From Candidatus Latescibacterota bacterium (GTDB lineage Bacteria > Latescibacterota > UBA2968): a stretch of 64,000 nucleotides of DNA. Below, piece after piece: positions 45,342-64,000 of the stretch (the stretch's first letter is position 1; every line of letters starts with the position of its first letter). The notes under the pieces are model-generated. The model did not search any database. It was not told the DNA's origin and saw nothing but the letters and a program-made list of their open reading frames with translations. Made by a program: the position numbers and the translations under genes. Location of the stretch: NCBI GenBank assembly GCA_965198115.1, contig OZ240241.1:3648001-3712000 (forward strand). The letters run 5' to 3'.

Positions 45342-45438
45342 CCCACTCCTCCGCTAACGTGACGCGCATTCGAATCAGTCTCAAAAGTAGTAGGTATACC
45401 GAATGCGTGTTGGGGAAAAAAACCGTCCGATGTCGGCT

Positions 45439-46552
45439 TCAGCTGCTGAACTCGTGGAGGAAAGCCGTGATGAACGCATCGATGTCCCCGTCCATCACGC
45501 CCTGCACGTCGGAGGTCTCGACCCCTGTCCTGACGTCTTTGACCATCTGGTGGGGCTGGAACACGTAATTCCGGATCTGACTGCCCCACTCGATCTTCTT
45601 CTTCCCACTCTCGAGCGCCGCCCGCTTCTCCTCTTCCTTTTCCTTATAGTGCTGATACAGCCGGGCCTTGAGGATCTTCGTGGCCGAATTCTTGTTCTTG
45701 TGCTGGCTGCGCTCGTTCTGGCACTGAACGACGATCCCCGTCGGTAGGTGCGTCATTCTCACGGCCGAGTCGGTCTTGTTCACGTGCTGACCGCCGGCAC
45801 CGCCAGCCCGATACGTGTCGATCCGGACGTCTTCGGGTTTGATTTCGACCTCGATGTCGCCGGCCGCTTCGGGGTAGACGAATACGGAGGCAAACGAGGT
45901 ATGACGCCGCTTGTTGGAGTCGAACGGGGAGATGCGGACCAGGCGATGGACGCCGATCTCTGCCTTCAGGTACCCGAAAGCATACTCCCCCGTCACTTCG
46001 ATCGTCGCGCTCTTGAGTCCCGCCGTTTCGCCGGGTTGAAGATCCAGGACGTCGGCCTTCAAGTCGTGACGCTCAGCCCAGCGCACATACATGCGCATGA
46101 GCATCTGGGCCCAATCCTGCGCCTCCGTCCCACCGGCACCCGGGTGGATCGACAGGATGGCGTTGAGCCGGTCCTCGCGATCACCCAACATGTGTCGTAA
46201 CTCGAGGTCGGCCAGCTTGCGCTCCGACTCCGAGAGTTCCTGGTCGATTTCTGCGAGTGTCTCTTCGTCGTCCTCCTCGGCAGCGAGTTGGTAGAGCTCT
46301 TCGACGTCGGTCATGGCCTCCTCGATCGTCGTCCAGCCATCAACCCACGCCTTGTGTCCGTTCACTTCCTCGATCGTCTCTCTCGCCTTTTCCTGGTCGT
46401 CCCAGAAAGAGGACGCCTCCATCAGCCGCTCAAGCTCGGCGATACGCGATCGTCGCGAGTCTAATTCAAAGATACCTCCCGAGATGGTCTACTCTCTCTC
46501 GGCAGGATTGGATACGGGACTGAACATCGACAGATTGGATTTCGGGAGCCAT
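45439..46552 (-). CDS. prfB: Peptide chain release factor 2, programmed +1 frameshift
   Basis: ATG 46552 ORF ends GGGAGG-TAT-CTT-TGA (46466-46480); the +1 frame carries SPF and GGQ motifs. Confidence 0.96.
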
Positions 46553-49738: not shown

Positions 49739-51037
49739 CTACGGGCCGAACTGTAGTCCCCTGCCGTAAATCACGGTGTTTCGTGCACGCAGAATCCGTC
49801 CGTTTTCGGCGACGGCCTCGACATCGATAACGAAGGGACCTGGCTTTACACGCACCCCTCGATCGTCCCGCCCATCCCACACGGTCACGAACCGTGAACC
49901 CACCTGTTCGCCGCTCGCTAGCGTCCTTCTCAGTCGTCCCAGGCGGTCGAAGACCCTGAGCATCAATCGTGCGTGTCGCGAATCGACTGTCACCGTGATC
50001 TCGGTCGTGTCGGCGAACGGGCTGGGTGTTGCATCGATCCGCAGTTGGGCCGTCGCGTCGTAGGCCACACTGTTGGGTTGCCCCGGGGTGGAACCGCCCG
50101 ATGCCGTCGACACCAGCCAGTTGTCTGGCCCGCCCTCGACGGAGACATCGATCCTTTCTATAGATCGCCCAGGCCGTGAAGAATCGTAGGTAACGTCGTC
50201 GACCTCGGAATCGGTCGCATCGAGAAGCGTCAGCGTGTCTCCGCCGTCGTTCAAAGCCGGCCAGGGCGATACGACGGACGTCGGAGATCCAGCAAGTGGG
50301 ACCCTCGCTAGGATGCGTCGGCCCCCGGGGGCTACCGGCTCGGCGGGCTGGACACGCCCCACTCTCCCGGATCGATCTCGCAGCCCCCATCCGGCAAGAT
50401 CGACCTCAAAGGACGCACGGTTCTGGACCTCAACCCACTCCGTGCCCTCCGTTGGGGCCACCATCAACTCCGTCACGACAACAGAACCCGAGGGCACTCC
50501 GAAGACGATCTCGACTGTGGCCCGGTCATTCGTCGGATCCTCGTCCCCCGGTGCAACGACCTCAGCCACATACGTCTCTCGGACGCCCGGCGACGACTCA
50601 ATCGTCACCTCCACCCAGACGGACGCGCCTGCCTCGACCGAAAAAATGCTGTCACCGGCGGCCGAATCTGCACCAACCAGATGAACGTGGGCCCGGGCGA
50701 CCATCGTGCCGTGATTTACGACCCTCAACGATACGACGGACCGCCCGCCGAAAGGGAGTTCGAAGGAAGCCGGCTCGATGGCCACATCTCGAGTCTTTGG
50801 CGAAACGCTGTTCGTGCGACCTGGAGTACCGCCTTCCCACCGTCCATCCTCCCATTCCGAGTCATCCGAAACGCGTTCCTCACTCACCCCCTCCCGATTC
50901 CCGATCGTGTAGGTGTGCGAGTCGACCGTATCGCCCTGCGCATCCACGAGTAGCACCGTCTCGCCCTGAAGGTTGCTGAACCCGCTGAGACCGAAGGTAG
51001 GATCTCCGAGGACGAAAACCACGGCGTCGGGCGGTAA
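49739..51037 (-). pseudogene. Lamin-tail-domain protein with FlgD-like Ig C-terminus; 5' end cut by ISAzo13 and the cassette island
   Basis: ELMVAP..EWVEVQN, STPGQPNS, PSPF..WDGRDDRG. Frame continues about 12 codons beyond the IS (52336-52371). Confidence 0.75.
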
Positions 51038-52332
51038 GGGTTTGCCACGAAATAAGTGCTGCACTTTTCAAGGTAATGATCTTACGCTCGGAGTGTGGAC
51101 GTCGAAACTCTCCGAACGAAGTATGAAGCCTTGGCTCCGGTGCTGACGGAACGCACGCGTCGTCTGTGGGCCGCCACGGAAGCCGAAGCGTTGGGTCACG
51201 GTGGGATCGCGATTGTGGCTCTGGCGACAGGAATGTCCAGAGAGCGGATCTTTCGTGGCATTCAGGAGTTGAGGTCGGACGAACCTTTGGACCCGGCTCG
51301 CATCCGGCGTCCAGGCGGCGGTCGTAAGCGGAAGGCCGACACGGACCCGACGCTGTGGCAGGACCTGAATGATCTGGTCGAGCCAACGACTGCGGGGTCG
51401 CCTGACGACAATCCTCTGAGATGGACATCGAAGAGCACTCGCAAACTGGCCGCCGAGTTGCAAGCGATGGGGCATTCGGTGAGCCCCAGGATCGTTGCCA
51501 ATCTCCTGCACGAACACGATTACACGCTGCAGGCGAATCGGAAGACAAGGGAGGGATCTGCACACCCGGATCGGGACGCTCAGTTCGTTTACCTCGATGA
51601 TCGGATTAGCCAGCAGCAGCAGCAGGGCCTTCCCGTTATCTCGGTGGACACCAAGAAGAAAGAGTTGATCGGCGACTTCAAGAATCCTGGCCGAGAATGG
51701 CGACCCAAGGGAGACCCGGAGCGTGTGAAGGTACACGATTTCATAGTGCCTGCTCAGGGCAAGGCGATCCCTTATGGAGTGTATGATCTGAGCCGTGATG
51801 AAGGCTGGGTAAGTGTCGGTATCGATCACGACACGGCCAGCTTCGCCGTGAATGCGATCCGAAGTTGGTGGAAGAACATGGGACGGCCCGCCTACGGCAC
51901 TTCGACGCATCTGCTAATCACGGCGGACGCAGGCGGCAGCAACGGCGCCAAGACGCGGCTGTGGAAGTGGGAGCTGCAGCGCTTTGCGAATCGCACTGGC
52001 CTGACGATCACCGTATGCCACTACCCTCCTGGCACTAGTAAGTGGAACAAGATCGAACATCGCCTGTTCTCCTTCATCGCTATGAACTGGGCGAGGCAAG
52101 CCCCTGGTCAGCCTGGCTGCAACCGTGAATCTCATTGCCGGAACGACCACTCAAGCCGGTCTCCGAGTACGCTCCGAGATCGACAAGCGACCCTACCCTA
52201 ACGGGGTCAAGGTGACCGATGAACAGATGACCCAAATCGATCTCACTCCGCACGATTTCCACGGCGACTGGAACTACACGATCCGGCCAATGGCTCAACA
52301 TTGAGATCGACCGTTTATTTATTCGCGAACCC
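51038..52332 (+). mobile_element. ISAzo13 family IS
   Basis: Imperfect IRs GGGTTTGCCACGAAATAA / GGGTTCGCGAATAAATAA; TAA direct repeats at 51035-51037 and 52333-52335. Confidence 0.9.
51095..52304 (+). pseudogene. ISAzo13 transposase with an extra G near 52090
   Basis: ISVDTKKKE, TADAGGSN, PPGTSKWNKIEHRLF. MNWRGKPL is broken; the shifted frame ends FHGDWNYTI. Confidence 0.88.
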
Positions 52333-52370
52333 TAAGTACTTACCGCCGTACTTCTCGATACTTCTATGGT

Positions 52371-52442
52371 CGTTCCGGGCACCCGCGAACTTGCCGTGGG
52401 TCGAGGGGCGTCAGCCTCGAGCCGCGGGTGCTGCTGTTAGGC
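52371..52442 (-). repeat. attC-like site (R' non-canonical) after the VOC gene
   Basis: GCCTAAC, arms gcacccgcg/cgcgggtgc, then G-ACCATA where GTTRRRY is expected. Confidence 0.55.
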
Positions 52443-52529
52443 GGTGTTGTTTTGACTCTCTCAGCGACCACCGGAGCGTCCACTCCGGGAATGTAGCATC
52501 GAGGCACGGACCGGATCTGTGTCCTGAGA

Positions 52530-52946
52530 TCATCCACGATTCGCCTCGGTCGGGCTCGTGAAGTTGAGGTGGTTACCGAATGGGTCCAGGAGATGCAACT
52601 CCGTCTTCCCCCACGGCTGGTCGACCAGCTCTGTCCCGTGGTGTGTCCCCCCTGCCGCTTCGAGCGCGTCCGGATTCCTGCACTTCAGGTCGTCGTAGAA
52701 CACATACACATCTTCCACATCCAACCCGATTCCGATGCCTTCTGGTACCTCCTTGTGCTCGGTCAGATGCAGAGCCAGCTCTCCATCTGCGATGCCGGGA
52801 CTCTCCCCTCTAGAAACCCCCATAAGCACCGGGAATCCCTCTTCGTGGCGCCACTCGAAATCGATCTTGAATCCGAGGAAATCAACGTAGTAGCGGACCG
52901 CTTCTTCGTAGCTTTTGATGTACAAGCAGGGATATGCACGTGACAT
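52530..52946 (-). CDS. VOC/glyoxalase family protein (gene cassette)
   Basis: YYVDFLGFKIDFEWR, LHLTEH, PWG, DPFGNHL. Confidence 0.88.
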   Translation of the reverse strand: MSRAYPCLYIKSYEEAVRYYVDFLGFKIDFEWRHEEGFPVLMGVSRGESPGIADGELALHLTEHKEVPEGIGIGLDVEDVYVFYDDLKCRNPDALEAAGGTHHGTELVDQPWGKTELHLLDPFGNHLNFTSPTEANRG

Positions 52947-53049
52947 ACCAATCTCCGATCAGATTTCTTGAAGCTGTGCTGTCCGCGATTTCCCGGTCTT
53001 TTTACACCCACCCTAAAGACCTTAGCTAATACAGTAGCCAGCCAATGCC

Positions 53050-53130
53050 GCCTAACGGACAAGGCTGCCCGACGGCGCGAAGCGCTGTTTTGGCGGTGGG
53101 TATGGTGGGGGCGGGCAGCCGCAGTTAGCC
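53050..53130 (-). repeat. attC-like site (81 bp)
   Basis: GGCTAAC..ggctgcccg/cgggcagcc..GTTAGGC. Confidence 0.7.
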
Positions 53131-53223
53131 GCTGTTGCAGTCCCGGTCCCTCACGCGACCCTTCAAGGATGGAAGGGCGTCGCGTAGAGCTATCAGGAAT
53201 CGGTTCCCCTAACTGTCGACCTA

Positions 53224-55676
53224 TCAGGCCAAGCGACTAAGCCGGCTTCTGATGAAGGCCGTGATTTCGGCGAGTTCATCCTCCTCATAGTTCGACTCAA
53301 TGAGATCCCAACAGGAGAAGAATCCTAATCCAGAGGTCTGACGATAGAAATGCAGCCACGAATCACGGTCTGACGGCAAAGGGCCGTCGTAAGCATCGAA
53401 GAAAGCATTGGTGCAAGGGGTGAGGAGATCCTCCCGACCGAACCCAAGATCGAACTCCTGATTTGAGAAATGGAAATAGAGTCGCGAGAGGTCCATAAAC
53501 ACATGCCCCGGGCGCATCCCACCGAGATCAAGGAGGCCGGTCACCCGATCCCCAGAGATCATAATGTTGGTGGCGGAAAAGTCACCGTGGACCAGACAGG
53601 GGGTGAGCTCGTCGCTCAGTTCTTGGATGGTCGTTCTCAACCACGCTTGTAGCTTGGAAGTAGAATCGGCGAAAGGAGTCTTGAGGCCCGATCTTGCCTC
53701 AGTCAGCCATCTCTGGAGCTCGTATTCTCGGGCTGACACGAAAAAGGGGTTCTCCGGTCCTTCGACGGATCGAACTTCACCATCCTCGTAGGTCAAGAAC
53801 CACCAAACAGCGAAAACTGAACGAGACTATGCAGCGTAGATACGATCTTACCGAGTTGCGAGTATACAGACACCGCTACATCGAGTGAAAGGTCACAACC
53901 AATATCTCTCAGATTCTGTCCAGGAATGCGACTCTTGACGAGGAATTCACCGTCCACCCCCGTCACCCGGAGTCCGGTATGTAGAATCCGGGGGAGGAGG
54001 ATTGTGGTCTTCTCAGACAAGATCCGAAGAGCAAGTTCCTCACGATCGACCGATCTCTTCTTTTTTATAGAGACGTGCTGAACGACAACCGCTTCGCCGT
54101 GCCTCGGTTCGATTAGGTATGTGGGTTTGTCAATCCCGCCAGGAGCTCAGGTCAATAGGTGTGTAAAAGAAATCAGGCGGCCATCTTCCCGGTTTCGACC
54201 TGCGGTCCGGTTGAGTGTTTCTGATCGTAGACTTGTTGTAGCAAGTGTGGCGCGGTGAGTTTCCTGAATCGGCTCTCTGCGACCTTGAGCGTACGCCAGA
54301 TGAGAGTCGTGGCGTTCCTGACTTTCTTGAATCGCCTGGCGGCGTTTGTGCGAAGCCGAACGGAAGCAAAGGGGCTCTCGACGACGTTCGTGGTTCTCAG
54401 GTGTTTCCAGTGTTCCTTCGGGAAGTCGTAGAACGTGACCATCCGATCCCAGTCTCTTTCGAGCGTCTCCACGGCGGCAGGGAACTGTGAGCGATACCGT
54501 GCGGCAAAGCGTTTCCGGAGCTTCTCGGCCTCCTTTTTCGTGCCGGCATAGGGGATCTGGACGAGCAGTGCGCGGGCTTCAGCCTGTGCACGCTTGGCGA
54601 CCTTGTCGAGCACGTTGAGGATCTTGTGGTTCCAGCACCGTTGTTGCCGGCTCTCTGGCCAGACCTGATCAACGGCCGCCCAGATGCCCATATTCCCGTC
54701 CGCGGCGATCAGGACAGGATGTTCGAGCCCGCGATCCCGGAGATCCCGGAGCACCGTGAGCCAGGATTCTGTAGACTCTCGATAACCGGGTTCTATCGCC
54801 AGGATCTCCTTGCTGCCGTCGCTCATCGCGCCGATCACGACCAGCAGACACGCCTTCTCGCGCTCGAGCCCGGCTTTGACGTAGATGCCATCAGCCCAGG
54901 CGTAGACCAGTTCGCGATTATCCAGACGCCTTTCTTTCCAGTCCTGGAAGTCGACCTCCCACTTCCCTCGAAGACGAGCGATCGAGGTCGGCGAAAGCGG
55001 CGCGCCATCACCGAGCAGCGCACGCAAAGACAACTCGAAGTCGCCCTGGGAGAGACCGTGGAGATAAAGGTCGGGAAGCAGATCTCCAATGGCCCTGGTT
55101 CTCCGGGCGAACAGGGGGAGGATGCGGCTTTCAAACCGCTCTTCCAGACCACGAACCCGGGGACGCCGGACCTTGATCGTTCCGCAGCTCGTCGAGAGAC
55201 GCCGGGGCTTGCCGTAGCCGTTCCTGTAGCCCCTGGAGCGAACTTGGGAGTACTGTCTACTCGATCTTTCCTGCTTGCCCCCAGGTGTCCACACCGGACG
55301 AGCCTGCGCCGTGGGAAGGGCTATCGACCTCGGCTCGGCGCTCATACCACGACCGGCCCAAGAACGCGGTCGCCTCCTCCTCCAGAATGGACTGGAACCG
55401 GCCCTGGATCTCTTCACGGATCCAATCGTCAACCGTCTCCCACGTCGGCATGGACTTCAATGGGGCTCTATGCGTATGTTCCTTCACGGCGATCCTCCTT
55501 CCCAACCGGGCCTCTCACCCGGTTTTGTGTGAATCAACTATCTCACGGGAAGGGTAGGGTCGCCCTTTCTCTTTTTCCACACCTTTTGATTATAGCTCCC
55601 CGCCAGTCATTTGTTGCACAGACGAGATGTCACATTGGAGAACTTGCTCGAAAACCTGTTGTGAGAATCCGTTCAA
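53224..55676 (-). pseudogene. APH-family phosphotransferase cassette, interrupted by IS256 and two frameshifts
   Basis: Removing the IS joins MTG to GIDKPTY; downstream LVHGDFSATNIM, LLDLG. Confidence 0.75.
54143..55598 (-). mobile_element. IS256 family element, copy A (transposase frameshifted by an 82-bp insert)
   Basis: IRs gagctataatcaaaaggtgtggaaaa / gagctcaggtcaataggtgtgtaaaa; 8-bp TSD cccgccag (54135-54142, 55599-55606); YRNGY, WADG, QRCWNH, RTTN. Confidence 0.93.
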
Positions 55677-55680
55677 CTGT

Positions 55681-55754
55681 CTCTCACACTGGACTCTGGC
55701 GGCGCAGGGCACGCGCAACCGACCGGGACTGTGATGGCGGCTGCGGTGTTAGGC
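55681..55754 (-). repeat. Degenerate attC-like site (74 bp)
   Basis: GCCTAAC after the methyltransferase stop; R' reads GTGAGAG; arms pair weakly. Confidence 0.4.
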
Positions 55755-55825
55755 GTAGGCGGCTCCTTTCGGGCAAAGCCAATTGAGGAGAGTAATCGTC
55801 GCACGGTAGAACCAACTGGTGGGTC

Positions 55826-56614
55826 TCAGACCCTCTGGAGTATCAAGTAGATGTTCCCGAGTTCCCCGGACAGGTTCTCCCTGTCTTTCAATTCTTCGAA
55901 ATCCTCGCCGTATATCGCCACAATCTCAAACTGGCCAGATCGTTCAACCAAACTCTCGAGATCATCAAAAAGCCACATCCTTAAGGTGTGGCGGTCTTCA
56001 AGGTGTTCTAGCCTATCGTCTTGTTCGACTTGAAAGGAGCAAATCTCGTGGCTGAGCTTGGATTCCCTGTCTTCGGTGATGATTTCCCAGGAGGTTTTCA
56101 CGCGGATTCCGTCACGTACCATCGTCCAGCGGTCGTCGGGATCTCCGATGCCTTGAAGTTCGCCATCCTGAGCAAGATTCAGATGGACGATGTAGACACC
56201 GTTCTCTCGAAGGGAGGAACCCGTAGCTTTCAGGTGGGCGATCACATCGGCATCGGAAAGCAGATAACGAAAGCTGTTGATCGAATTATAAGCTGCATCG
56301 AATTCACCATGGATCTCAGACGAAACCATGTCGGCCAGTAGAATCTTAGCATCTTTCAGGCAGCCGGCGTCCGAGACAGATTGCTCCGCGTATTGGACCA
56401 TAGCAGGGCTTATGTCATAGCCTGTCACTCGAAACCCGTGTTTAGGAAGCACCCTCAGAAAGCGACCTGAGCCGCAGGCCGGTTCCAGCAAACGTGTCAC
56501 CGTAAACGGTACGTGTGTTTCGAATACCCTCTTGAAGAAGGCAACTTCGCGTGAAAGGTCCCAAGAGAACGCGATGTCGTAGATCTCAGGATGATCGTAG
56601 AGTTTGAAGCTCAC
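55826..56614 (-). CDS. Class I SAM-dependent methyltransferase (gene cassette)
   Basis: LLEPACGSGR, GYDIS.AM, ADM, FDAAY..INSF. Confidence 0.9.
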   Translation of the reverse strand: MSFKLYDHPEIYDIAFSWDLSREVAFFKRVFETHVPFTVTRLLEPACGSGRFLRVLPKHGFRVTGYDISPAMVQYAEQSVSDAGCLKDAKILLADMVSSEIHGEFDAAYNSINSFRYLLSDADVIAHLKATGSSLRENGVYIVHLNLAQDGELQGIGDPDDRWTMVRDGIRVKTSWEIITEDRESKLSHEICSFQVEQDDRLEHLEDRHTLRMWLFDDLESLVERSGQFEIVAIYGEDFEELKDRENLSGELGNIYLILQRV

Positions 56615-56649
56615 GTGTTTTCGTGCCCCTCAGTTTCTTAGCCGCTTAC

Positions 56650-56739
56650 GCCTAACGGTTTCACAATTCACGACGCCGCGAATGGGGGGTGCCGAAGGCC
56701 AAGCGCCGCAAGGCGCGCAACGGGAATTGCTGGTTAGAA
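56650..56739 (-). repeat. attC-like site (90 bp)
   Basis: TTCTAAC-cag-caattc..gaattg-tgaaacc-GTTAGGC with internal hairpins. Confidence 0.75.
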
Positions 56740-56784
56740 GACGGGATACTGCAACTTGTGCAAAAACTCGTCTCAGAGCAGAAA

Positions 56785-57780
56785 CTACCTTTGAGGGATC
56801 TTCACCTGGGAAAATTGAAAGTTCGGTCCTTTGGTATAAGTGGCCCCAAGACCCAGCCCCCAGTCATACGGCCCGGGGCCGGCTTGCTCTTCAGCCCACG
56901 CCTTCAGCGGAACACTATCCCATTCGTCCGTAAACCAGTATTGCGACGACGGATTGCCGATCGGGTCTTTGCCGAGCCGATCTGAACCATCGCCCGTGGC
57001 CCCCAGTAGCTGCCGTCGGATAGGCGCACTGCGGGCAATCACCTCTGGATCCTGTTCTATATAACCGCTCGGTCGTATCCATCTGGGCGCATAGCTGATA
57101 TAGAGGGCCTTGCGGAAGTTTGTGGAAAGGTTGGGGGTCACACTGTGCAAGATCGTGGGCCGCCATAGCATGGCGCTGCCGGCCGGTACGCGCAATGCGA
57201 AGATGTCCTCCGGATCGAGCCAGGACTCCCAGGTAGCCCGTTGCTCTCGGGTCCACTGGTAGCTACCGGGCACCATAAGGATGGTGCTGTGACCAGGCTC
57301 GGTATGATCCGAAACGTACCAGCCGACCTTAAAGTCCAGGAGGGGCATGCGGCCATCTATCGTCGTGCCAGCGAATTCTTCTTCATAATCGAAATGCCAT
57401 CCCAGCGATAATACGTCGGGATCGGTGTCGCCAGGCTGCGGCGCTTTATAGTCAAAAACGCTATCGCGATTTTGAATATTCCAGCCCATGGCATCGACGA
57501 CCAAGGGCAGGATGCGGGGATGATCGAGCAAGTCCATTATGACCTCATGACGTGCCACCGCATTGCGGACGACGACGCTGTCATTGGGACCCAAGCCACG
57601 TACTTTCCGAAGCTGCTCCGCCACCTCGTCCATACCTGCCCACAAGCGTTCTAGCTCGGATGGGTTCAATACACGCTCTAATACCGTGAACCCCTGTCCG
57701 TTGAGTTCATCTTTCTGTTGATCGGTCATAGCTATTGTCATCTGATTTCCCTCTACTTTTGTCGCAAATGCATCCTGCAA
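56785..57780 (-). CDS. PhyH family dioxygenase (gene cassette)
   Basis: QGFTVL, WHFD, VPGS, PAGS..LHS..N. Confidence 0.87.
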   Translation of the reverse strand: MQDAFATKVEGNQMTIAMTDQQKDELNGQGFTVLERVLNPSELERLWAGMDEVAEQLRKVRGLGPNDSVVVRNAVARHEVIMDLLDHPRILPLVVDAMGWNIQNRDSVFDYKAPQPGDTDPDVLSLGWHFDYEEEFAGTTIDGRMPLLDFKVGWYVSDHTEPGHSTILMVPGSYQWTREQRATWESWLDPEDIFALRVPAGSAMLWRPTILHSVTPNLSTNFRKALYISYAPRWIRPSGYIEQDPEVIARSAPIRRQLLGATGDGSDRLGKDPIGNPSSQYWFTDEWDSVPLKAWAEEQAGPGPYDWGLGLGATYTKGPNFQFSQVKIPQR

Positions 57781-57792
57781 AATACTCCTGTT

Positions 57793-57950
57793 GTCTAACG
57801 TTTCAGCAATCGCGAAGCCGGCCCTTCGGCAGGCTCCCTTCGACTTCGCCCCTCGACTCCGCTCGGGACAGGCTCAGGACAGCAGGACAGGCTCTCGCCG
57901 GTTTGGGTGGCTGGGTTCTTGGGCAGGGGGGCGCGTCCGCGGTGTTAAGT
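57793..57950 (-). repeat. attC-like site (158 bp; 88 bp without the nested repeat insert)
   Basis: ACTTAAC..ccgg/ccgg..cgcgattgctgaaac-GTTAGAC. The right arm resembles that of the 56650 site. Confidence 0.55.
57822..57891 (+). repeat. Three nested copies of a ~23-nt CCCTTCGAC-N3-GCTCAGGACAGG unit
   Basis: Outer 57822-57835 + 57883-57891; middle 57836-57849 + 57874-57882; inner 57850-57873. Confidence 0.7.
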
Positions 57951-58045
57951 GTCCGTGCCGGTGCCAGTGGTTGAGGACGCGAGTATAGAAGCATCGTCGT
58001 CTTGAGGTCTTGGTGACCAAGGCGTTCCTGAATGGTCCGGATGTC
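57930..58045 (-). pseudogene. intI: C-terminal fragment of an integron integrase (IntI)
   Basis: DIRTIQERLGHQDLKTTM, then (1-nt shift) FYTRVLN; matches IntI box II DIRTVQELLGH.D..TTMIYTHVLN. Confidence 0.75.
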
Positions 58046-58062
58046 GTTAAGCTGTCTGCAGA

Positions 58063-58857
58063 CTAGCGCTCCACGATGTGGGCAAACAGCGGCCTGACCT
58101 TCTCGGGTAGCGCGGCGTACGTCTCGGCCGTAATCAGCTGCACGTCTTCAGGCCGGGTCCCGGTCTCTTCGGCCACGCGTTCGTACTCGATTGTGCCAGG
58201 GATCAGGTGATTCAGGTTAAGCCACCAGGGCGCATACCGGACCACAACCGCGACCCGGGTGCGATCGCTGACGTTGGCGGCCGTGGCGTGCCACATCCGG
58301 CTATCGAGGATCAGCACGTTCCCGGCTTCGCCCGTGGCCTGCATCTCGGTCGGATATGGAGCGTGAGCGTCGACGCCGATGTTTCCGGAGGGATTGCCGG
58401 GTGCTCTATGGCTCCCGGGAACCAGAAGCGTACCGCCTGTTTCCTTGGTGAAGGTCGTCAGCATCCATATCGTCGTCAGGTGCATGACGGCGTCGGCGTA
58501 GGGCGCCGGAATATGTCGGGACTGCTTCTGGCCGAACGGCCAGTCTGAGTGCCAGTTGTCCCGTTCCTGCCCCGGCGTGGTGACCAGTCCCGTGGTAAAC
58601 GATACCCGTGCGTACGGGCCGAAGAATGCCTCCACGATGCCCAGCACACGGTCGTCCGCCAGATAGGGCGCCAGGGATTGGTTGTAGGTGATAAGGCCCC
58701 TAAGGGCGTGTCGAGCGCCCTCTTTACCCCTGGCGTCGGACCTCGCGGTTTCAACGATGCTCTGGCAGACTGCGTCTACCTCGTTCTCCGGTATGACGCC
58801 GGGAACAACGCACCATCCGTCCATCTTGATGCGCCGCACCGCTTCTTCTTTTGACAA
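58063..58857 (-). CDS. PhyH family dioxygenase
   Basis: DGWCVV, WHSDWP, VPGSH, DSRMWHA..N..R; GAGGAGG RBS. Confidence 0.9.
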   Translation of the reverse strand: MSKEEAVRRIKMDGWCVVPGVIPENEVDAVCQSIVETARSDARGKEGARHALRGLITYNQSLAPYLADDRVLGIVEAFFGPYARVSFTTGLVTTPGQERDNWHSDWPFGQKQSRHIPAPYADAVMHLTTIWMLTTFTKETGGTLLVPGSHRAPGNPSGNIGVDAHAPYPTEMQATGEAGNVLILDSRMWHATAANVSDRTRVAVVVRYAPWWLNLNHLIPGTIEYERVAEETGTRPEDVQLITAETYAALPEKVRPLFAHIVER

Positions 58858-59113
58858 GCCAACCTCCTCGCCATCACTATTGTAAGAGCGGCAACGTCAC
58901 TCCTATCGAACGCGTGGCATGTTCTGACACGCCGATGACGGGTCGTTTGCGGACTACTAAAGGCAACCACCAAGACACGAAGACACGAAGAAAGGCAACC
59001 GAGACAGCACGTTCCCACACGCCTCGAGCCCGAGAAGATGGCCGTCATGCGGCCCGACGCCGTCACCCTCGGAGACGTCTACCTGATGGTATCCCACGGG
59101 CGACAAACAACTC

Positions 59114-59260
59114 TTATGCTGGTGGCGCCACCGAGAGCTTTCCTTGAACGCCGAACTGTTCGATAAAGCTTGCGACTAAGCCGTTGGCCTTTGACGCTTC
59201 AACAAAGGCTTTGAGCCAGGCATAGGCTGCCTCATTGCCATGAGAACGCCGTTCATACAT
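59114..59260 (-). pseudogene. Probable C-terminal fragment of an ABC amino-acid substrate-binding protein
   Basis: GNEAAYAWLKAFVEASKANGLVASFIEQFGVQGKLSVAPPA resembles SBP family 3 C-termini (recognised by eye only). Confidence 0.45.
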
Positions 59261-59423
59261 CCGTCCTTTCGTTACGCGGTCTATATTACGGACTAATTAG
59301 GTTCTTCCACGGGAAAATGGTGGCGCCCCACGACGCTCGGGCACGTGGATCAGTTGGTGGAGAGTCCCTCTATGTCAGATCAGAAAGGCCTGCGAATCGC
59401 GGTGAGGAAGTTGGATGCGTTCG

Positions 59424-60811
59424 GGTGTTGTGCCTATCGTAGTTGAAACTTAGAGGGCTCCAAACTTACGTTGGGTAGACGTGTAGGAGCGTATACCCGT
59501 AAGAAAGGAGCCCAGATGGAGAAGCTATTTGTAGGCGATGGTGAAGTCAAGGTTGAGGGCGATGTCATCGATTTGGAGACGCGTTTGTCGGTGATCCAGG
59601 CGTTGATCCCGTTGGGTCTGGAGGCAGTGGCAGACCTCCTCCAGCAGGAGGTCGAGCAGCTCGCAGGCGTTCGGTATGCGCGCAAAGGTTCGGAGCAGGC
59701 GCATCGTCGGTGGGGAAGCCAGAAGGGATCCGTGTATCTGATGGACCAGAAGCTCCCGTTAGACGTTCCCCGGGTGCGCGACGTCGAGGCCGACGCAGAG
59801 GTTTCCCTGGCTGCATACCGGGCTCTACAGACGCCCAAGAAGACGGACGAGGGGCTGTTGCTTCGTGTTCTCAAGGGGATCTCGTGCCGCAACTACAAGG
59901 CCTGTGCCGAATCGGTTCCAGAAGCGTTTGGTATCTCAGCGTCCTCCGTCTCGCGGCGGTTCATCAAAGCCACCGCGAAGAAGCGGAAGCAGTTCCAGGA
60001 GCGTCCCCTCGACGACTACGGCTTCGTGACCCTGTTCATTGACGGAAAGAGCTTTGCCGACAAAGAGATCGTGATCGCTCCGGGGGTCACGATGGACGGC
60101 CAGAAGATCCCCCTGGGCTTCGTCGAATCGGCGACGGAGAACGAACGGATCTGCCGCCAGCTGATCCAGGACCTCATCCGGAGAGGCCTGTGCTACGACC
60201 AGGGCCTTCTCGTTGTGCTTGACGGCTCAAAGGGACTCCGCAGTGCTGTCACCAAAGCCCTCAAAGGGTATGTGCGCGTGCATCGCTGTCAGTGGCACAA
60301 GCGCGAGAATGTCGTCAGCTATCTCCCGGAGAGGGAACGTCCAAGAGTTCGACGGAAGCTCCAGAAAGCCTATGACTGCGACACCTACGAGGAGGCAAAA
60401 GCCGCACTCGAATCACTTAAACCCGAACTGAAGCTGATGAATCAGTCTGCCGTAACGAGCCTCGAGGAAGGCCTGGAGGAAACCCTGACCCTCCACCGGC
60501 TGGGTATGCTCCCATTCCTGAAACGAAGCTTCCGAACCACCAACTGCATCGAAGCCCTCAACAGCAGGACCGGCGAGCTCACTCGGAAGGTCAGACGCTG
60601 GAACAACTCTCCCCAGAGACACAGATGGGTGGCTGCCGCACTCCTCGACATCGAACCTCGCCTGCGACGCGTGAGCGGATACAAACATCTTCCCCTACTC
60701 AGGCAAGCACTGAACAAAGATCTGAATCTCGACAACGAACAGAATGCTCAAAAGAGAGCCTGACCAAACTACGGGGCCCGATGAGTTTTCAACTGACTAT
60801 GGGACTTGACC
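59424..60811 (+). mobile_element. IS256 family element (distinct type)
   Basis: 8-bp TSD tgcgttcg (59416-59423, 60812-60819); imperfect IRs containing AGTTGAAA. Confidence 0.92.
59516..60763 (+). CDS. IS256 family transposase
   Basis: FIDG, LDGSKGL, HRCQWHKREN, RTTNCIE. Confidence 0.92.
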   Translation: MEKLFVGDGEVKVEGDVIDLETRLSVIQALIPLGLEAVADLLQQEVEQLAGVRYARKGSEQAHRRWGSQKGSVYLMDQKLPLDVPRVRDVEADAEVSLAAYRALQTPKKTDEGLLLRVLKGISCRNYKACAESVPEAFGISASSVSRRFIKATAKKRKQFQERPLDDYGFVTLFIDGKSFADKEIVIAPGVTMDGQKIPLGFVESATENERICRQLIQDLIRRGLCYDQGLLVVLDGSKGLRSAVTKALKGYVRVHRCQWHKRENVVSYLPERERPRVRRKLQKAYDCDTYEEAKAALESLKPELKLMNQSAVTSLEEGLEETLTLHRLGMLPFLKRSFRTTNCIEALNSRTGELTRKVRRWNNSPQRHRWVAAALLDIEPRLRRVSGYKHLPLLRQALNKDLNLDNEQNAQKRA

Positions 60812-61647
60812 TGCGTTCGAGCGGGCGATAGAAAGACAATGGACTGACTTTTGCAGATCGGAGCAAGATGATTGGACTCTGGAAATCGTGTCCCTCAATA
60901 TTCCCGACTTGCATACAGCGTTGTTTGAAAAAGGCGGACTCGAGCGAGGCGATTTCGACGTCGCTTTTGTCGTGACGGATTGGATCGCTGAAGCAGCTGC
61001 CGGGCATCACCTCGCGGATTTGCAGCCCTACTTGAAAGAGCTGCCACCGGAGGATTACCCCCACGGATGGGATCACTCTCTATTACGCTTCCAGACTTAT
61101 GGAAACGAAGTATATGGTCTTCCCTACCATAACGGACACAAATGCCTGATTTATCGAAAAGACCTTCTCGACGACCCAGGAGAACGGGCAAACTATGAGA
61201 GAAGATTCGGTAGTCGTCTTGCAGTACCGCAAACGTGGGATGAGTTTACACGGGTTGCCCGGTTCTTTAATCGCCCGAAAAGTGGAATGTCGGGTGTTGT
61301 CTTTGTCGCGCATGAGGATGGATACAATACTGTTTGCGACTTCTGTCTTCATTTGTGGTCACGAGGGGAGAGCTTGGTTACGCGAGTGGGAATCTTGTTC
61401 TGAACCATCCACTTGTGGAAGAAACGTTAGCATTCTACCGCAAGATTGTGAATGATCCCCAAATTGTCCCCGCGCATACGCGGATGTTTGACGCCGTAGA
61501 ATCGGGGATGGCTTTTGTTAGGGGCGAAGCGGCCATGATGATGAACTGGTTCAGCTGGGCAGCGCAGTGTGAACGTCTGTCCGAATCCAAAGTAAAAGGG
61601 AAGGTTGGGGTTGCTCATTTGCCGAATGAGAATGAGCAACCCGGGTT

Positions 61648-63001
61648 GAGCTATAATCAAAAGGTGTGGAAAAAGAGAAAGGGCGACCCTACCCTTCCCG
61701 TGAGATAGTTGATTCACACAAAACCGGGTGAGAGGCCCGGTTGGGAAGGAGGATCGCCGTGAAGGAACATACGCATAGAGCCCCATTGAAGTCCATGCCG
61801 ACGTGGGAGACGGTTGACGATTGGATCCGTGAAGAGATCCAGGGCCGGTTCCAGTCCATTCTGGAGGAGGAGGCGACCGCGTTCTTGGGCCGGTCGTGGT
61901 ATGAGCGCCGAGCCGAGGTCGATAGCTCCACGGGCTACAGGAACGGCTACGGCAAGCCCCGGCGTCTCTCGACGAGCTGCGGAACGATCAAGGTCCGGCG
62001 TCCCCGGGTTCGTGGTCTGGAAGAGCGGTTTGAAAGCCGCATCCTCCCCCTGTTCGCCCGGAGAACCAGGGCCATTGGAGATCTGCTTCCCGACCTTTAT
62101 CTCCACGGTCTCTCCCAGGGCGACTTCGAGTTGTCTTTGCGTGCGCTGCTCGGTGATGGCGCGCCGCTTTCGCCGACCTCGATCGCTCGTCTTCGAGGGA
62201 AGTGGGAGGTCGACTTCCAGGACTGGAAAGAAAGGCGTCTGGATAATCGCGAACTGGTCTACGCCTGGGCTGATGGCATCTACGTCAAAGCCGGGCTCGA
62301 GCGCGAGAAGGCGTGTCTGCTGGTCGTGATCGGCGCGATGAGCGACGGCAGCAAGGAGATCCTGGCGATAGAACCCGGTTATCGAGAGTCTACAGAATCC
62401 TGGCTCACGGTGCTACGGGATCTCCGGGATCGCGGGCTCGAACATCCTGTCCTGATCGCCGCGGACGGGAATATGGGCATCTGGGCGGCCGTTGATCAGG
62501 TCTGGCCAGAGAGCCGGCAACAACGGTGCTGGAACCACAAGATCCTCAACGTGCTCGACAAGGTCGCCAAGCGTGCACAGGCTGAAGCCCGCGCACTGCT
62601 CGTCCAGATCCCCTATGCCGGCACGAAAAAGGAGGCCGAGAAGCTCCGGAAACGCTTTGCCGCACGGTATCGCTCACAGTTCCCTGCCGCCGTGGAGACG
62701 CTCGAAAGAGACTGGGATCGGATGGTCACGTTCTACGACTTCCCGAAGGAACACTGGAAACACCTGAGAACCACGAACGTCGTCGAGAGCCCCTTTGCTT
62801 CCGTTCGGCTTCGCACAAACGCCGCCAGGCGATTCAAGAAAGTCAGGAACGCCACGGCTCTCATCTGGCGTACGCTCAAGGTCGCAGAGAGCCGATTCAG
62901 GAAACTCACCGCGCCACACTTGCTACAACAAGTCTACGATCAGAAACACTCAACCGAACCGCAGGTCGAAGCCGGGAAGATGGCCGCCTGATTTCTTTTA
63001 C
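61648..63001 (+). mobile_element. IS256 family element, copy B (right IR interrupted by ISL3)
   Basis: Near-identical to copy A in inverted orientation; identity stops at atttcttttac. Confidence 0.92.
61741..62991 (+). CDS. IS256 family transposase (intact; start uncertain)
   Basis: YRNGY, WADG, IAADG, QRCWNH, RTTNVVES. Confidence 0.92.
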   Translation: MGRRIAVKEHTHRAPLKSMPTWETVDDWIREEIQGRFQSILEEEATAFLGRSWYERRAEVDSSTGYRNGYGKPRRLSTSCGTIKVRRPRVRGLEERFESRILPLFARRTRAIGDLLPDLYLHGLSQGDFELSLRALLGDGAPLSPTSIARLRGKWEVDFQDWKERRLDNRELVYAWADGIYVKAGLEREKACLLVVIGAMSDGSKEILAIEPGYRESTESWLTVLRDLRDRGLEHPVLIAADGNMGIWAAVDQVWPESRQQRCWNHKILNVLDKVAKRAQAEARALLVQIPYAGTKKEAEKLRKRFAARYRSQFPAAVETLERDWDRMVTFYDFPKEHWKHLRTTNVVESPFASVRLRTNAARRFKKVRNATALIWRTLKVAESRFRKLTAPHLLQQVYDQKHSTEPQVEAGKMAA

Positions 63002-64000
63002 GGCTATATCCGGATCTCTCAACGAGCTGAAGTGGGTGAAGGTGCCGTGGTTCCTGGCATGGGGGCGCGGTTAGCGTGTGCGGAACCTCTTCGGAATCTG
63101 CTCAGGGATGTTTATGTCTCCGACGGTAAGGAAGATCATATCGTTGAATGCGTCGAGTGTGCGGAATCCGCTGGCTCGGTTCTTGACGATTTGGACGATT
63201 CGGTTGAGGCCTTCGGCGATGGCGTTGGTAAGACGCGTGTTCACGAATGCGAGGACGCCGAAGAAGTGCTGTCGCAGGGTCCTGACGAACTTTCGCAGGG
63301 GTTCACGTCGACTTCTGAGTGCGGACGTCGTCCAGCATTTCAGGAAGCGTTCGGCAGCCCAGGGCGCTTTGTATTCCCAGAACTGCTCGAACTCGTCCTT
63401 GAGTCTCCAGGCTCTATAGATTCGGTAGTTCGCCTTCTCCAGTGCTTTGAGTGTCCGAGTATCCCCTCTGGAGCGTGTCGCTGAGTGCCGGTAGAGGAGC
63501 CATCGGAGGCCCTTCATGGCTTTGCGCTCATCCGGGGCAGCTTTACGCCACTGGTCCTTACGGACCTCGTCAACGGCGGCATTGAGAGCCTTGACGATGT
63601 GAAAGCGATCGAGGACCAGCTTGGCATTCGGACAGTGTTCCTGGATGGCTCCGATGTAAGCTTCGCTCATGTCGCAGCAGGCCCACTCGATCTTGGATCT
63701 CTGGTAGGGACTGAGAGCCTCTGTGAAGAACCGATCGATCGTTTTACGCGCCCTGCCGCGGCCAACCCACACCACGCAGGAGCGGTCCAGATCGTAAACG
63801 AGCGTGGCGTACCTGTGACGCTTGGCGTAGGAGATCTCGTCGATCCCGATGGTTTTGAGCCCTCGGATACGATGACCTTCACGAAGCCGCGTGATGGATC
63901 GGTGAAGGAGATCCGACAGCGTCGAGGCAGAGATGCGCAGCAACTCGGACGCCGCCTTCTGCGTCATGGTCTGGCAGTAGCGCAGCATGGCATACTCGAA
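63002..64000 (-). mobile_element. ISL3 family IS (partial); transposase 63071 to beyond 64000
   Basis: IGIDE, CCDMSEAY, DRFHIVK, TNAIAEGLN..ASGFR; GGCT terminus at 63002. Confidence 0.92.

Follow-up and report, generated by a model that had tools for sequence, protein, structure and literature searches.

Among described systems, those closest to the locus analysed here are the CALINs, which are recognized by at least two attC sites with no integrase nearby and of which, according to Cury et al. 2016 (PMC4889954), 15 of 279 lie near an intI pseudogene. CALINs with an intI pseudogene resemble our locus in (i) at least two co-oriented attC sites, (ii) the lack of a functional intI, (iii) the presence of insertion sequences and (iv) a remnant less than 10 kb away. 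The pseudogene criterion there, however, is more than 50% of the profile, whereas the remnant described below is far shorter and fused directly into an attC leader; IntegronFinder-style screens would therefore miss it. Inverted integrons, reported for Treponema (PMC3607928) and as a paraphyletic group (PMC4889954), likewise have an intI gene that precedes the cassettes and lies on their strand, and T. phagedenis (PMC3607928) has lost intI with attC sites left behind, as is seen here. Unlike these integrons, our locus retains no intact intI, stop codon or attI, and its layout is read from orientation. In the sedentary integrons of Xanthomonas, as outlined in bioRxiv 10.1101/2025.06.18.660453, intI was similarly killed by frameshifts and large deletions and the arrays are frozen; those integrons occupy a fixed ilvD locus, while ours sits in an IS-rich tRNA-Cys island and was not found in the relatives searched. 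Insertion at attG sites, according to bioRxiv 10.1101/2022.09.11.507474, joins the attC bottom strand to GWT targets, neither of which fits the sequence GCTTAAC-GAC found here.

Arrays with XerA-type (NF040815-like) recombinases share the attC type of our locus in relatives and at 6.41 Mb of the same genome, but differ from the remnant in sequence: the latter reads DIRT.Q...VLN and is of the IntI type, while XerA-type enzymes read DLRYIQ...EIYTHV. rAID-1 (10.1101/471110) may be a related case of an integron-like array headed by a recombinase without the IntI insertion. IntI enzymes carry an insertion that is described in PMC9024848 and PMC8138268. A literature search returned no paper evidently concerned with a cassette inserted into intI or with integrons of this phylum, which is not proof of absence.

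Results

The window, a stretch of 64,000 nucleotides, comes from the single-contig, 8.43-Mb genome of a Candidatus Latescibacterota bacterium. The relevant features are collected in Table 1.

Table 1. Features of the integrase remnant and the adjoining cassette run, in window coordinates.
Feature	Position	Strand	Basis
PhyH-family dioxygenase gene, 264 aa, complete	58063..58857	minus	PF05721, E 4e-17
Decayed intI codons L-E-x-G-Y plus one extra base	58046..58061	minus	intI profile, nhmmer
intI remnant, box II, about residues 289-313 of 326	57970..58045	minus	TIGR02249, PDB, nearest-group score
End (19 nt) of conserved non-coding leader	57951..57969	minus	Copies in other genomes
attC-like site, R'' ACTTAAC, R' GTTAGAC, degenerate	57793..57950	minus	R1, alignment
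Cassette-like gene, second PhyH dioxygenase	56785..57780	minus	PF05721; RBS directly after R'
attC-like site, plus (bottom) strand folds attC-shaped	56650..56739	minus	-18.3 kcal/mol, z only -0.83
Cassette-like gene, SAM-dependent methyltransferase	55826..56614	minus	PF13649
Truncated APH-family phosphotransferase gene	53224-53796/54020		PF01636
attC-like site after APH-family gene	53050..53130	minus	R1 E 0.17; hairpin with paired R boxes, z -0.4
Cassette-like gene, glyoxalase/bleomycin-binding family	52530..52946	minus	PF19581
Degenerate attC-like site, R' lost	52376..52442	minus	R1 E 7e-8

At the head of the run lies a piece of 92 bases (58061-57970, minus strand) with two +1 indels. Its sequence supports the original prediction that it is a C-terminal fragment of an integron integrase and not of XerC/D or a phage enzyme. 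When the piece was read through with an X at the break, TIGR02249 scored 37.2 bits (E 2e-9), ahead of XerC (27.7), NF040815 (26.6) and XerD (23.5), and the ranking held without read-through (25.3 versus 18.3 bits). The best PDB match was the integron integrase IntI4 (2A3V, 29.3 bits), followed by the XerC-like 4A8E (21.6), and an intI DNA profile found the remnant genome-wide at E 4.8e-10. In a nearest-group test, which used box-II sets from the phylum and classed 37 of 38 controls correctly, mean top-3 scores fell from IntI (100.7) through long IntI-like (82) and XerA-type (76.7) to XerC/D (71.7).

On the minus strand, the PhyH stop (58065-58063) is followed by 10 nt, the motif GCTTAAC (58052-58046) and then box II, which begins with DIRTIQERLGHQDLKTTM (58045-57992). 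One extra base at 57991 shifts the frame by +1, so that the continuation FYTRVLN (57990-57970), and with it the catalytic Tyr codon, is out of frame. About 30 of about 326 codons are left, the full-length R-K-H-R-H-Y frame is gone, and no start codon was seen in the nearest in-frame stretch. TIGR02249 is matched at positions 277-303 only, the region of the IntI insertion (patch II-III) being deleted. One Logan contig covers 57507-59200 with 0 differences and 0 gaps; it may stem from the source sample and confirms the letters rather than recurrence of the locus, and the frameshift at 57991 is therefore no assembly error. Judged by its sequence, the piece cannot make an active recombinase, so that the array, barring the action in trans of some other recombinase, is a static CALIN. 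Two further contigs, one of 37 nt overlap (58030-58066, 4 differences, no gap, then non-intI sequence; run X1) and one of 151 nt that matches 58034-58162 at about 95% with 22 letters unaligned (run X2), do not bridge the junction by 31 letters and were left out as evidence. Run X2 and a PhyH protein of 89% identity nevertheless indicate that sister strains exist.

The original prediction had placed the start of intI homology immediately after GCTTAAC, taken as an R''-like core and as the point of fusion. The motif is indeed present 10 nt after the PhyH stop and fits RYYYAAC, but the homology begins about 16 nt earlier, at 58061, and crosses it. If one extra base is allowed, the 16 nt that separate the Asp codon from the PhyH stop translate as L-Q-T-A-Y, where most intI genes have L-E-x-G-Y, the best agreement being 12 of 15 letters with one intI. 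Against a profile of 16 intI genes, equal scores were reached by 162 of 50,000 random genome 16-mers and by 4 of 4,699 sites ending in RYYYAAC; for the 9 nt outside the supposed core, with no indel, 235 of 50,000 random sequences scored as well. The resulting P of about 0.003-0.005 for intI homology through GCTTAAC is somewhat optimistic owing to the choice of the upstream window among six lengths; a P of 0.009 set the 15-column window apart from the remaining ones (0.08-0.21). The nhmmer envelope of intI starts at 58062. From the profile match and this envelope, GCTTAAC most likely lies within intI-derived DNA, and may be read as decayed x-G-Y codons with one inserted base rather than as a working site.

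The motif itself is not rare, with 68 occurrences of RYYYAAC in the window versus 80.6 expected by chance. Folds of 57946-58052 and 57793-58052 left core and arms unpaired and revealed no L''/L' hairpin arm at GCTTAAC, and R1, an attC model built from 8 other sites and trained on close relatives, gave no match at 58052. The combination that makes an attC site (R'', L''...L' arms, R' and a bottom-strand hairpin) is absent there, and an attG-type insertion does not fit either: the target would read GTA, the motif is R''-like and not R'-like, and the 5' half was not found. A fusion at a recombination core is not supported, given the homology that runs across GCTTAAC and the missing arm. On this side the remnant is fused 1 nt past the stop of the complete PhyH gene. 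We also considered the PhyH C-terminus F-A-H-I-V-E as intI-derived (F-A-T-H-L-L-E), and rejected this since homologs share that ending, a PLF.H[IWL]V motif.

At the other end, the predicted fragment (57930..58052) has to be redrawn, intI homology ending at 57970. The remnant was also said to run into the next attC-like site; this site does follow (57950-57793), after the leader end (57969-57951). The remnant replaces the 5' part of this leader, and the join lies mid-leader with 1 nt of microhomology. The leader is found longer, without intI and with other DNA before it, in G046, G010, a Verrucomicrobia MAG and at 8,096,649 of the same genome. The DNA after VLN was accordingly rejected as a decayed intI tail, being attC leader plus left arm that is present elsewhere without intI. 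The leader motif has 6 genome matches, namely 5 attC sites and 1 chance match in a coding gene; named records with the leader are mostly Latescibacterota-type MAGs, and viral contigs gave 0 matches. In several copies (L069 of G046, L109, L100) the leader measures 60-130 nt, is non-coding, has an inverted repeat of its own and is shared by two phyla, resembling a cassette that lacks a gene.

The attC-like site behind it is matched by R1 in two pieces, 57897-57950 (E 5e-7) and 57795-57822 (E 0.032). Alignment to uninterrupted copies indicates that a 74-nt REP-type repeat (57823-57896), of a kind with 74 REP-like matches in the genome, replaces a 4-nt loop. The site folds no better than shuffled sequences (z +1.0), and the insertion probably disables it.

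As predicted, the remnant lies on the same strand as the cassettes: it and the four attC-like sites of the run (57950, 56739, 53130, 52442) are all on the minus strand. No further intI part was found in 40 kb around the locus or in the genome, and the run thus has both hallmarks of a CALIN. R1 reaches E<1e-6 for two of the four sites. The site at 56650-56739 has no R1 match, with weak BLAST matches (E 0.009) to attC sites that follow a XerA-type recombinase in G054. In folding, all four sites fall short of a significant advantage over shuffled sequences (z -1.2 to +1.0), and they therefore look decayed. A strict attC regular expression missed known sites and a relaxed scan missed all four window sites, so the attC calls rest on R1, folds and alignment. 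Behind the methyltransferase gene come a partial R'' (55754) and an element of the IS256 family (54173-55432); the site at 52376-52442 precedes an ISAzo13-family transposase (51095-52201, PF07592). The APH-family and glyoxalase/bleomycin-binding-like genes in cassette positions score far below resistance-family cut-offs.

That the remnant is embedded in the array, as the original prediction had it, holds in part: it heads a contiguous run, but the nearest upstream attC-like sites are 7 and 13 kb off, outside the window and across IS-rich DNA. These two sites (genome 3,713,283, L106:1177-1283, and 3,719,322, L106:7242-7322; minus strand, z -2.7) fold well and have ISL3 and IS256 elements between them and the array, and a tRNA-Cys gene (L106:11400-11473) bounds the IS-rich island. 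Between 58063 and 64000, R1 and the relaxed scan, the latter missing the four window sites as well, found no attC. Membership of the upstream PhyH gene (58063..58857) among the cassettes is not shown; no R' is recognizable before it, and the attC model had no match in 8 loci around homologs of both PhyH genes. Rfam had no match in 51000-64000, and no promoter or terminator was found in 57600-59500. Other attC-like sites of the same type, single or paired and many of them degenerate, occur at 74.8 kb and at 2.26, 2.28, 5.65, 6.35, 8.10 and 8.40 Mb of the genome, which has no intact intI; attG-type insertion could explain those scattered single sites.

The matching 5' part of intI, for which the original prediction called, was found neither by TIGR02249, whose 21 matches in the genome all stay below the cut-off, nor by the DNA profile. 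Protein and DNA profiles (from 14 and fewer intact genes) detected no further intI part in 40 kb around the remnant, and the other genome matches of the intI profiles are Xer-family genes. A strong IntI match occurs in 19 of 168 genomes of the phylum, one of them among the 41 nearest. DNA searches of 41, 61 and 168 genomes found no orthologous locus, a metagenome scan with PhyH gave 1 distant locus and no ortholog, and a plasmid BLAST gave 1 weak match, to a tyrosine recombinase/integrase. A pattern scan of 185,579 genomes did not find the junction again. Of 22 stretches examined in the phylum, 12 were set aside (XerA-type, near-full-length or unclassified ones, and the window itself); the other 10 are broken intI copies, whose 5' breakpoints spread over residues ~135 to ~286 and in no case show RYYYAAC in front of the Asp codon. 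A recurrent breakpoint at G-Y was accordingly rejected. C-terminal intI relics are frequent in the phylum (L075 of G147, L035 of G046, L032 of G005, L161-L163, L171), and at least two of them (G147, G046) keep an attI-like region and the first downstream gene.

The suggested comparison with related genomes did uncover intI followed by attC: co-oriented intI with downstream attC occurs in G044 (two copies), in G161 and as a relic in G046, whereas intI is divergent, i.e. non-inverted, in G043, G061 and G121. In relatives, 150-250 nt ending in a GTT core separate the intI stop from the first cassette. The attC type of the array, as captured by R1, has 12 matches behind XerA-type recombinases, spread over 4 of 12 stretches (G039, G025, G044 and, at 6.41 Mb, the same genome), versus none in 7 stretches around canonical intI; in shorter loci there were 5 matches in 30 with XerA-type genes and 0 in 31 with canonical intI. 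This contrast is confounded by kinship, as R1 derives from close relatives and most intI loci are more distant, and the BLAST support for the XerA link is weak (E 0.009).

Discussion

We consider it somewhat probable, at roughly 55%, that the piece is the last trace of a co-oriented, i.e. inverted, intI that headed the cassette run and was trimmed at both ends by ordinary deletions. A left deletion would have taken the first ~283 codons of intI, and a right deletion its final ~13 codons together with attI and the 5' part of what was then the first cassette, one without a gene; two indels and substitutions would then have accumulated in what was left. This reading agrees with (i) the family assignment, (ii) the homology upstream of the supposed core, (iii) the junction with microhomology inside the leader, (iv) the occurrence of co-oriented intI and the commonness of broken intI in the phylum and (v) the IS-rich island beside tRNA-Cys. 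Orientation and position fit the inverted-integrase relic that the original prediction had offered as one of two possibilities: the remnant lies on the cassette strand, upstream of the cassettes. The inverted layout, taken from orientation, is nevertheless unproven because the 3' end of intI and attI are gone, the remnant joining the attC leader directly, and because relatives tie the attC type to XerA-type recombinases. In G147 and G046 the relics have retained attI and the intI 3' end alike, divergent intI genes exist in the phylum, the upstream window was chosen from six lengths, and no close relative spanning the locus was found; all of this counts against the reading.

The rival that survives best, although distinctly less probable than decay in place, is that a stray scrap of intI arrived by illegitimate recombination or IS shuffling in an array assembled by a XerA-type recombinase devoid of the IntI insertion. 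It draws on the distribution of R1-type attC sites described above, on the broken XerA-type copy that heads a similar array at 6.41 Mb, on the leader-attC units, none of which has an IntI match within 2.5 kb (5 of 5 true matches of 6), and on the attC-like sites also present upstream of the remnant. Against it stands our expectation that 92 random nucleotides would be unlikely to land, in a genome of 8.4 Mb, on the same strand and exactly at the head of an attC run, besides the kinship bias of R1 and the weak BLAST matches.

It is somewhat less plausible still that the locus is the fossil of a hybrid platform, in which an inverted canonical IntI headed cassettes with the attC type that XerA-type recombinases otherwise carry. 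If this were true, canonical integrons and a non-canonical system would share one cassette pool in the phylum. The link between attC type and XerA-type enzymes bears on the need for the IntI insertion to move hairpin cassettes, a question that our locus only touches.

The other possibility raised by the original prediction, that IntI inactivated its own gene by recombining it, at the Tyr codon of GYDIRT, with the R'' core of an attC, is largely refuted, and we regard it as improbable. The motif and its place after the PhyH stop suit it, AAC GAC could be read as a TA|C crossover, and off-target insertion by IntI is established (bioRxiv 10.1101/2022.09.11.507474). Yet intI homology extends beyond the core on its upstream side, GCTTAAC is followed by no L''-L' arm, the 5' half was not found, and the junction recurs in none of the genomes scanned and none of the broken copies. 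Moreover, cleavage at R'' would amount to top-strand recombination, which is 1,000-10,000-fold rarer according to PMC5027507, and on its other strand the intI site has GTA where the target consensus is GWT (bioRxiv 10.1101/2022.09.11.507474). Self-inactivation at a core would be surprising, and the evidence is against it.

Very unlikely in our view is an atypical mini-cassette: 76 nt of intI, bounded by AAC-like triplets at the Tyr and Asn codons, that IntI would have cut out and that were inserted as a unit. AAC does occur near both ends of box II (58048-58046 and 57972-57970) as well as, in the intact leader, beside the right junction; however, intI homology starts ahead of the first AAC, the right join lacks the G that an AA|C crossover with the leader should leave behind AAC, and most IntI have the Asn codon anyway, as part of HVLN. 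That the piece is not IntI at all, but a scrap of a Xer or phage recombinase or a chance resemblance, can practically be dismissed: its PF00589 score of 22.6 lies under the cut-off of 27.1 and its 25-30 codons lack the diagnostic IntI insertion, but NCBIfam, PDB and the nearest-group test all rank IntI first and the DNA profile concurs.

The remnant is likely an ordinary product of decay, since CALINs with an intI pseudogene, inverted integrases and dead intI genes have all been described and broken intI copies are common in the phylum. What the locus adds is that CALINs can be adjoined by scraps of intI too short for the usual detection threshold; the published 5% of CALINs with an intI relic may therefore be low.

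Several observations concern recombinases elsewhere in the genome. The N-terminally broken XerA-type recombinase at 6,398,600-6,410,750 (L159) has no IntI insertion: it skips TIGR02249 positions 181-234 and best matches NF040815. Behind it, on the same strand, lie a GTTA core that resembles attI, an IS256-family element and no fewer than four attC-like sites with co-oriented genes, a layout that also follows its homologs in G039, G025, G054, G052, G041 and G044. A second, frameshifted Xer-like recombinase (3,498,430-3,499,250) looks, by eye, like the partner genes after intI in G044, which we take to be IS91-type transposon genes. Finally, prfB appears split over two frames in the window (45403-46422), presumably owing to its programmed frameshift.
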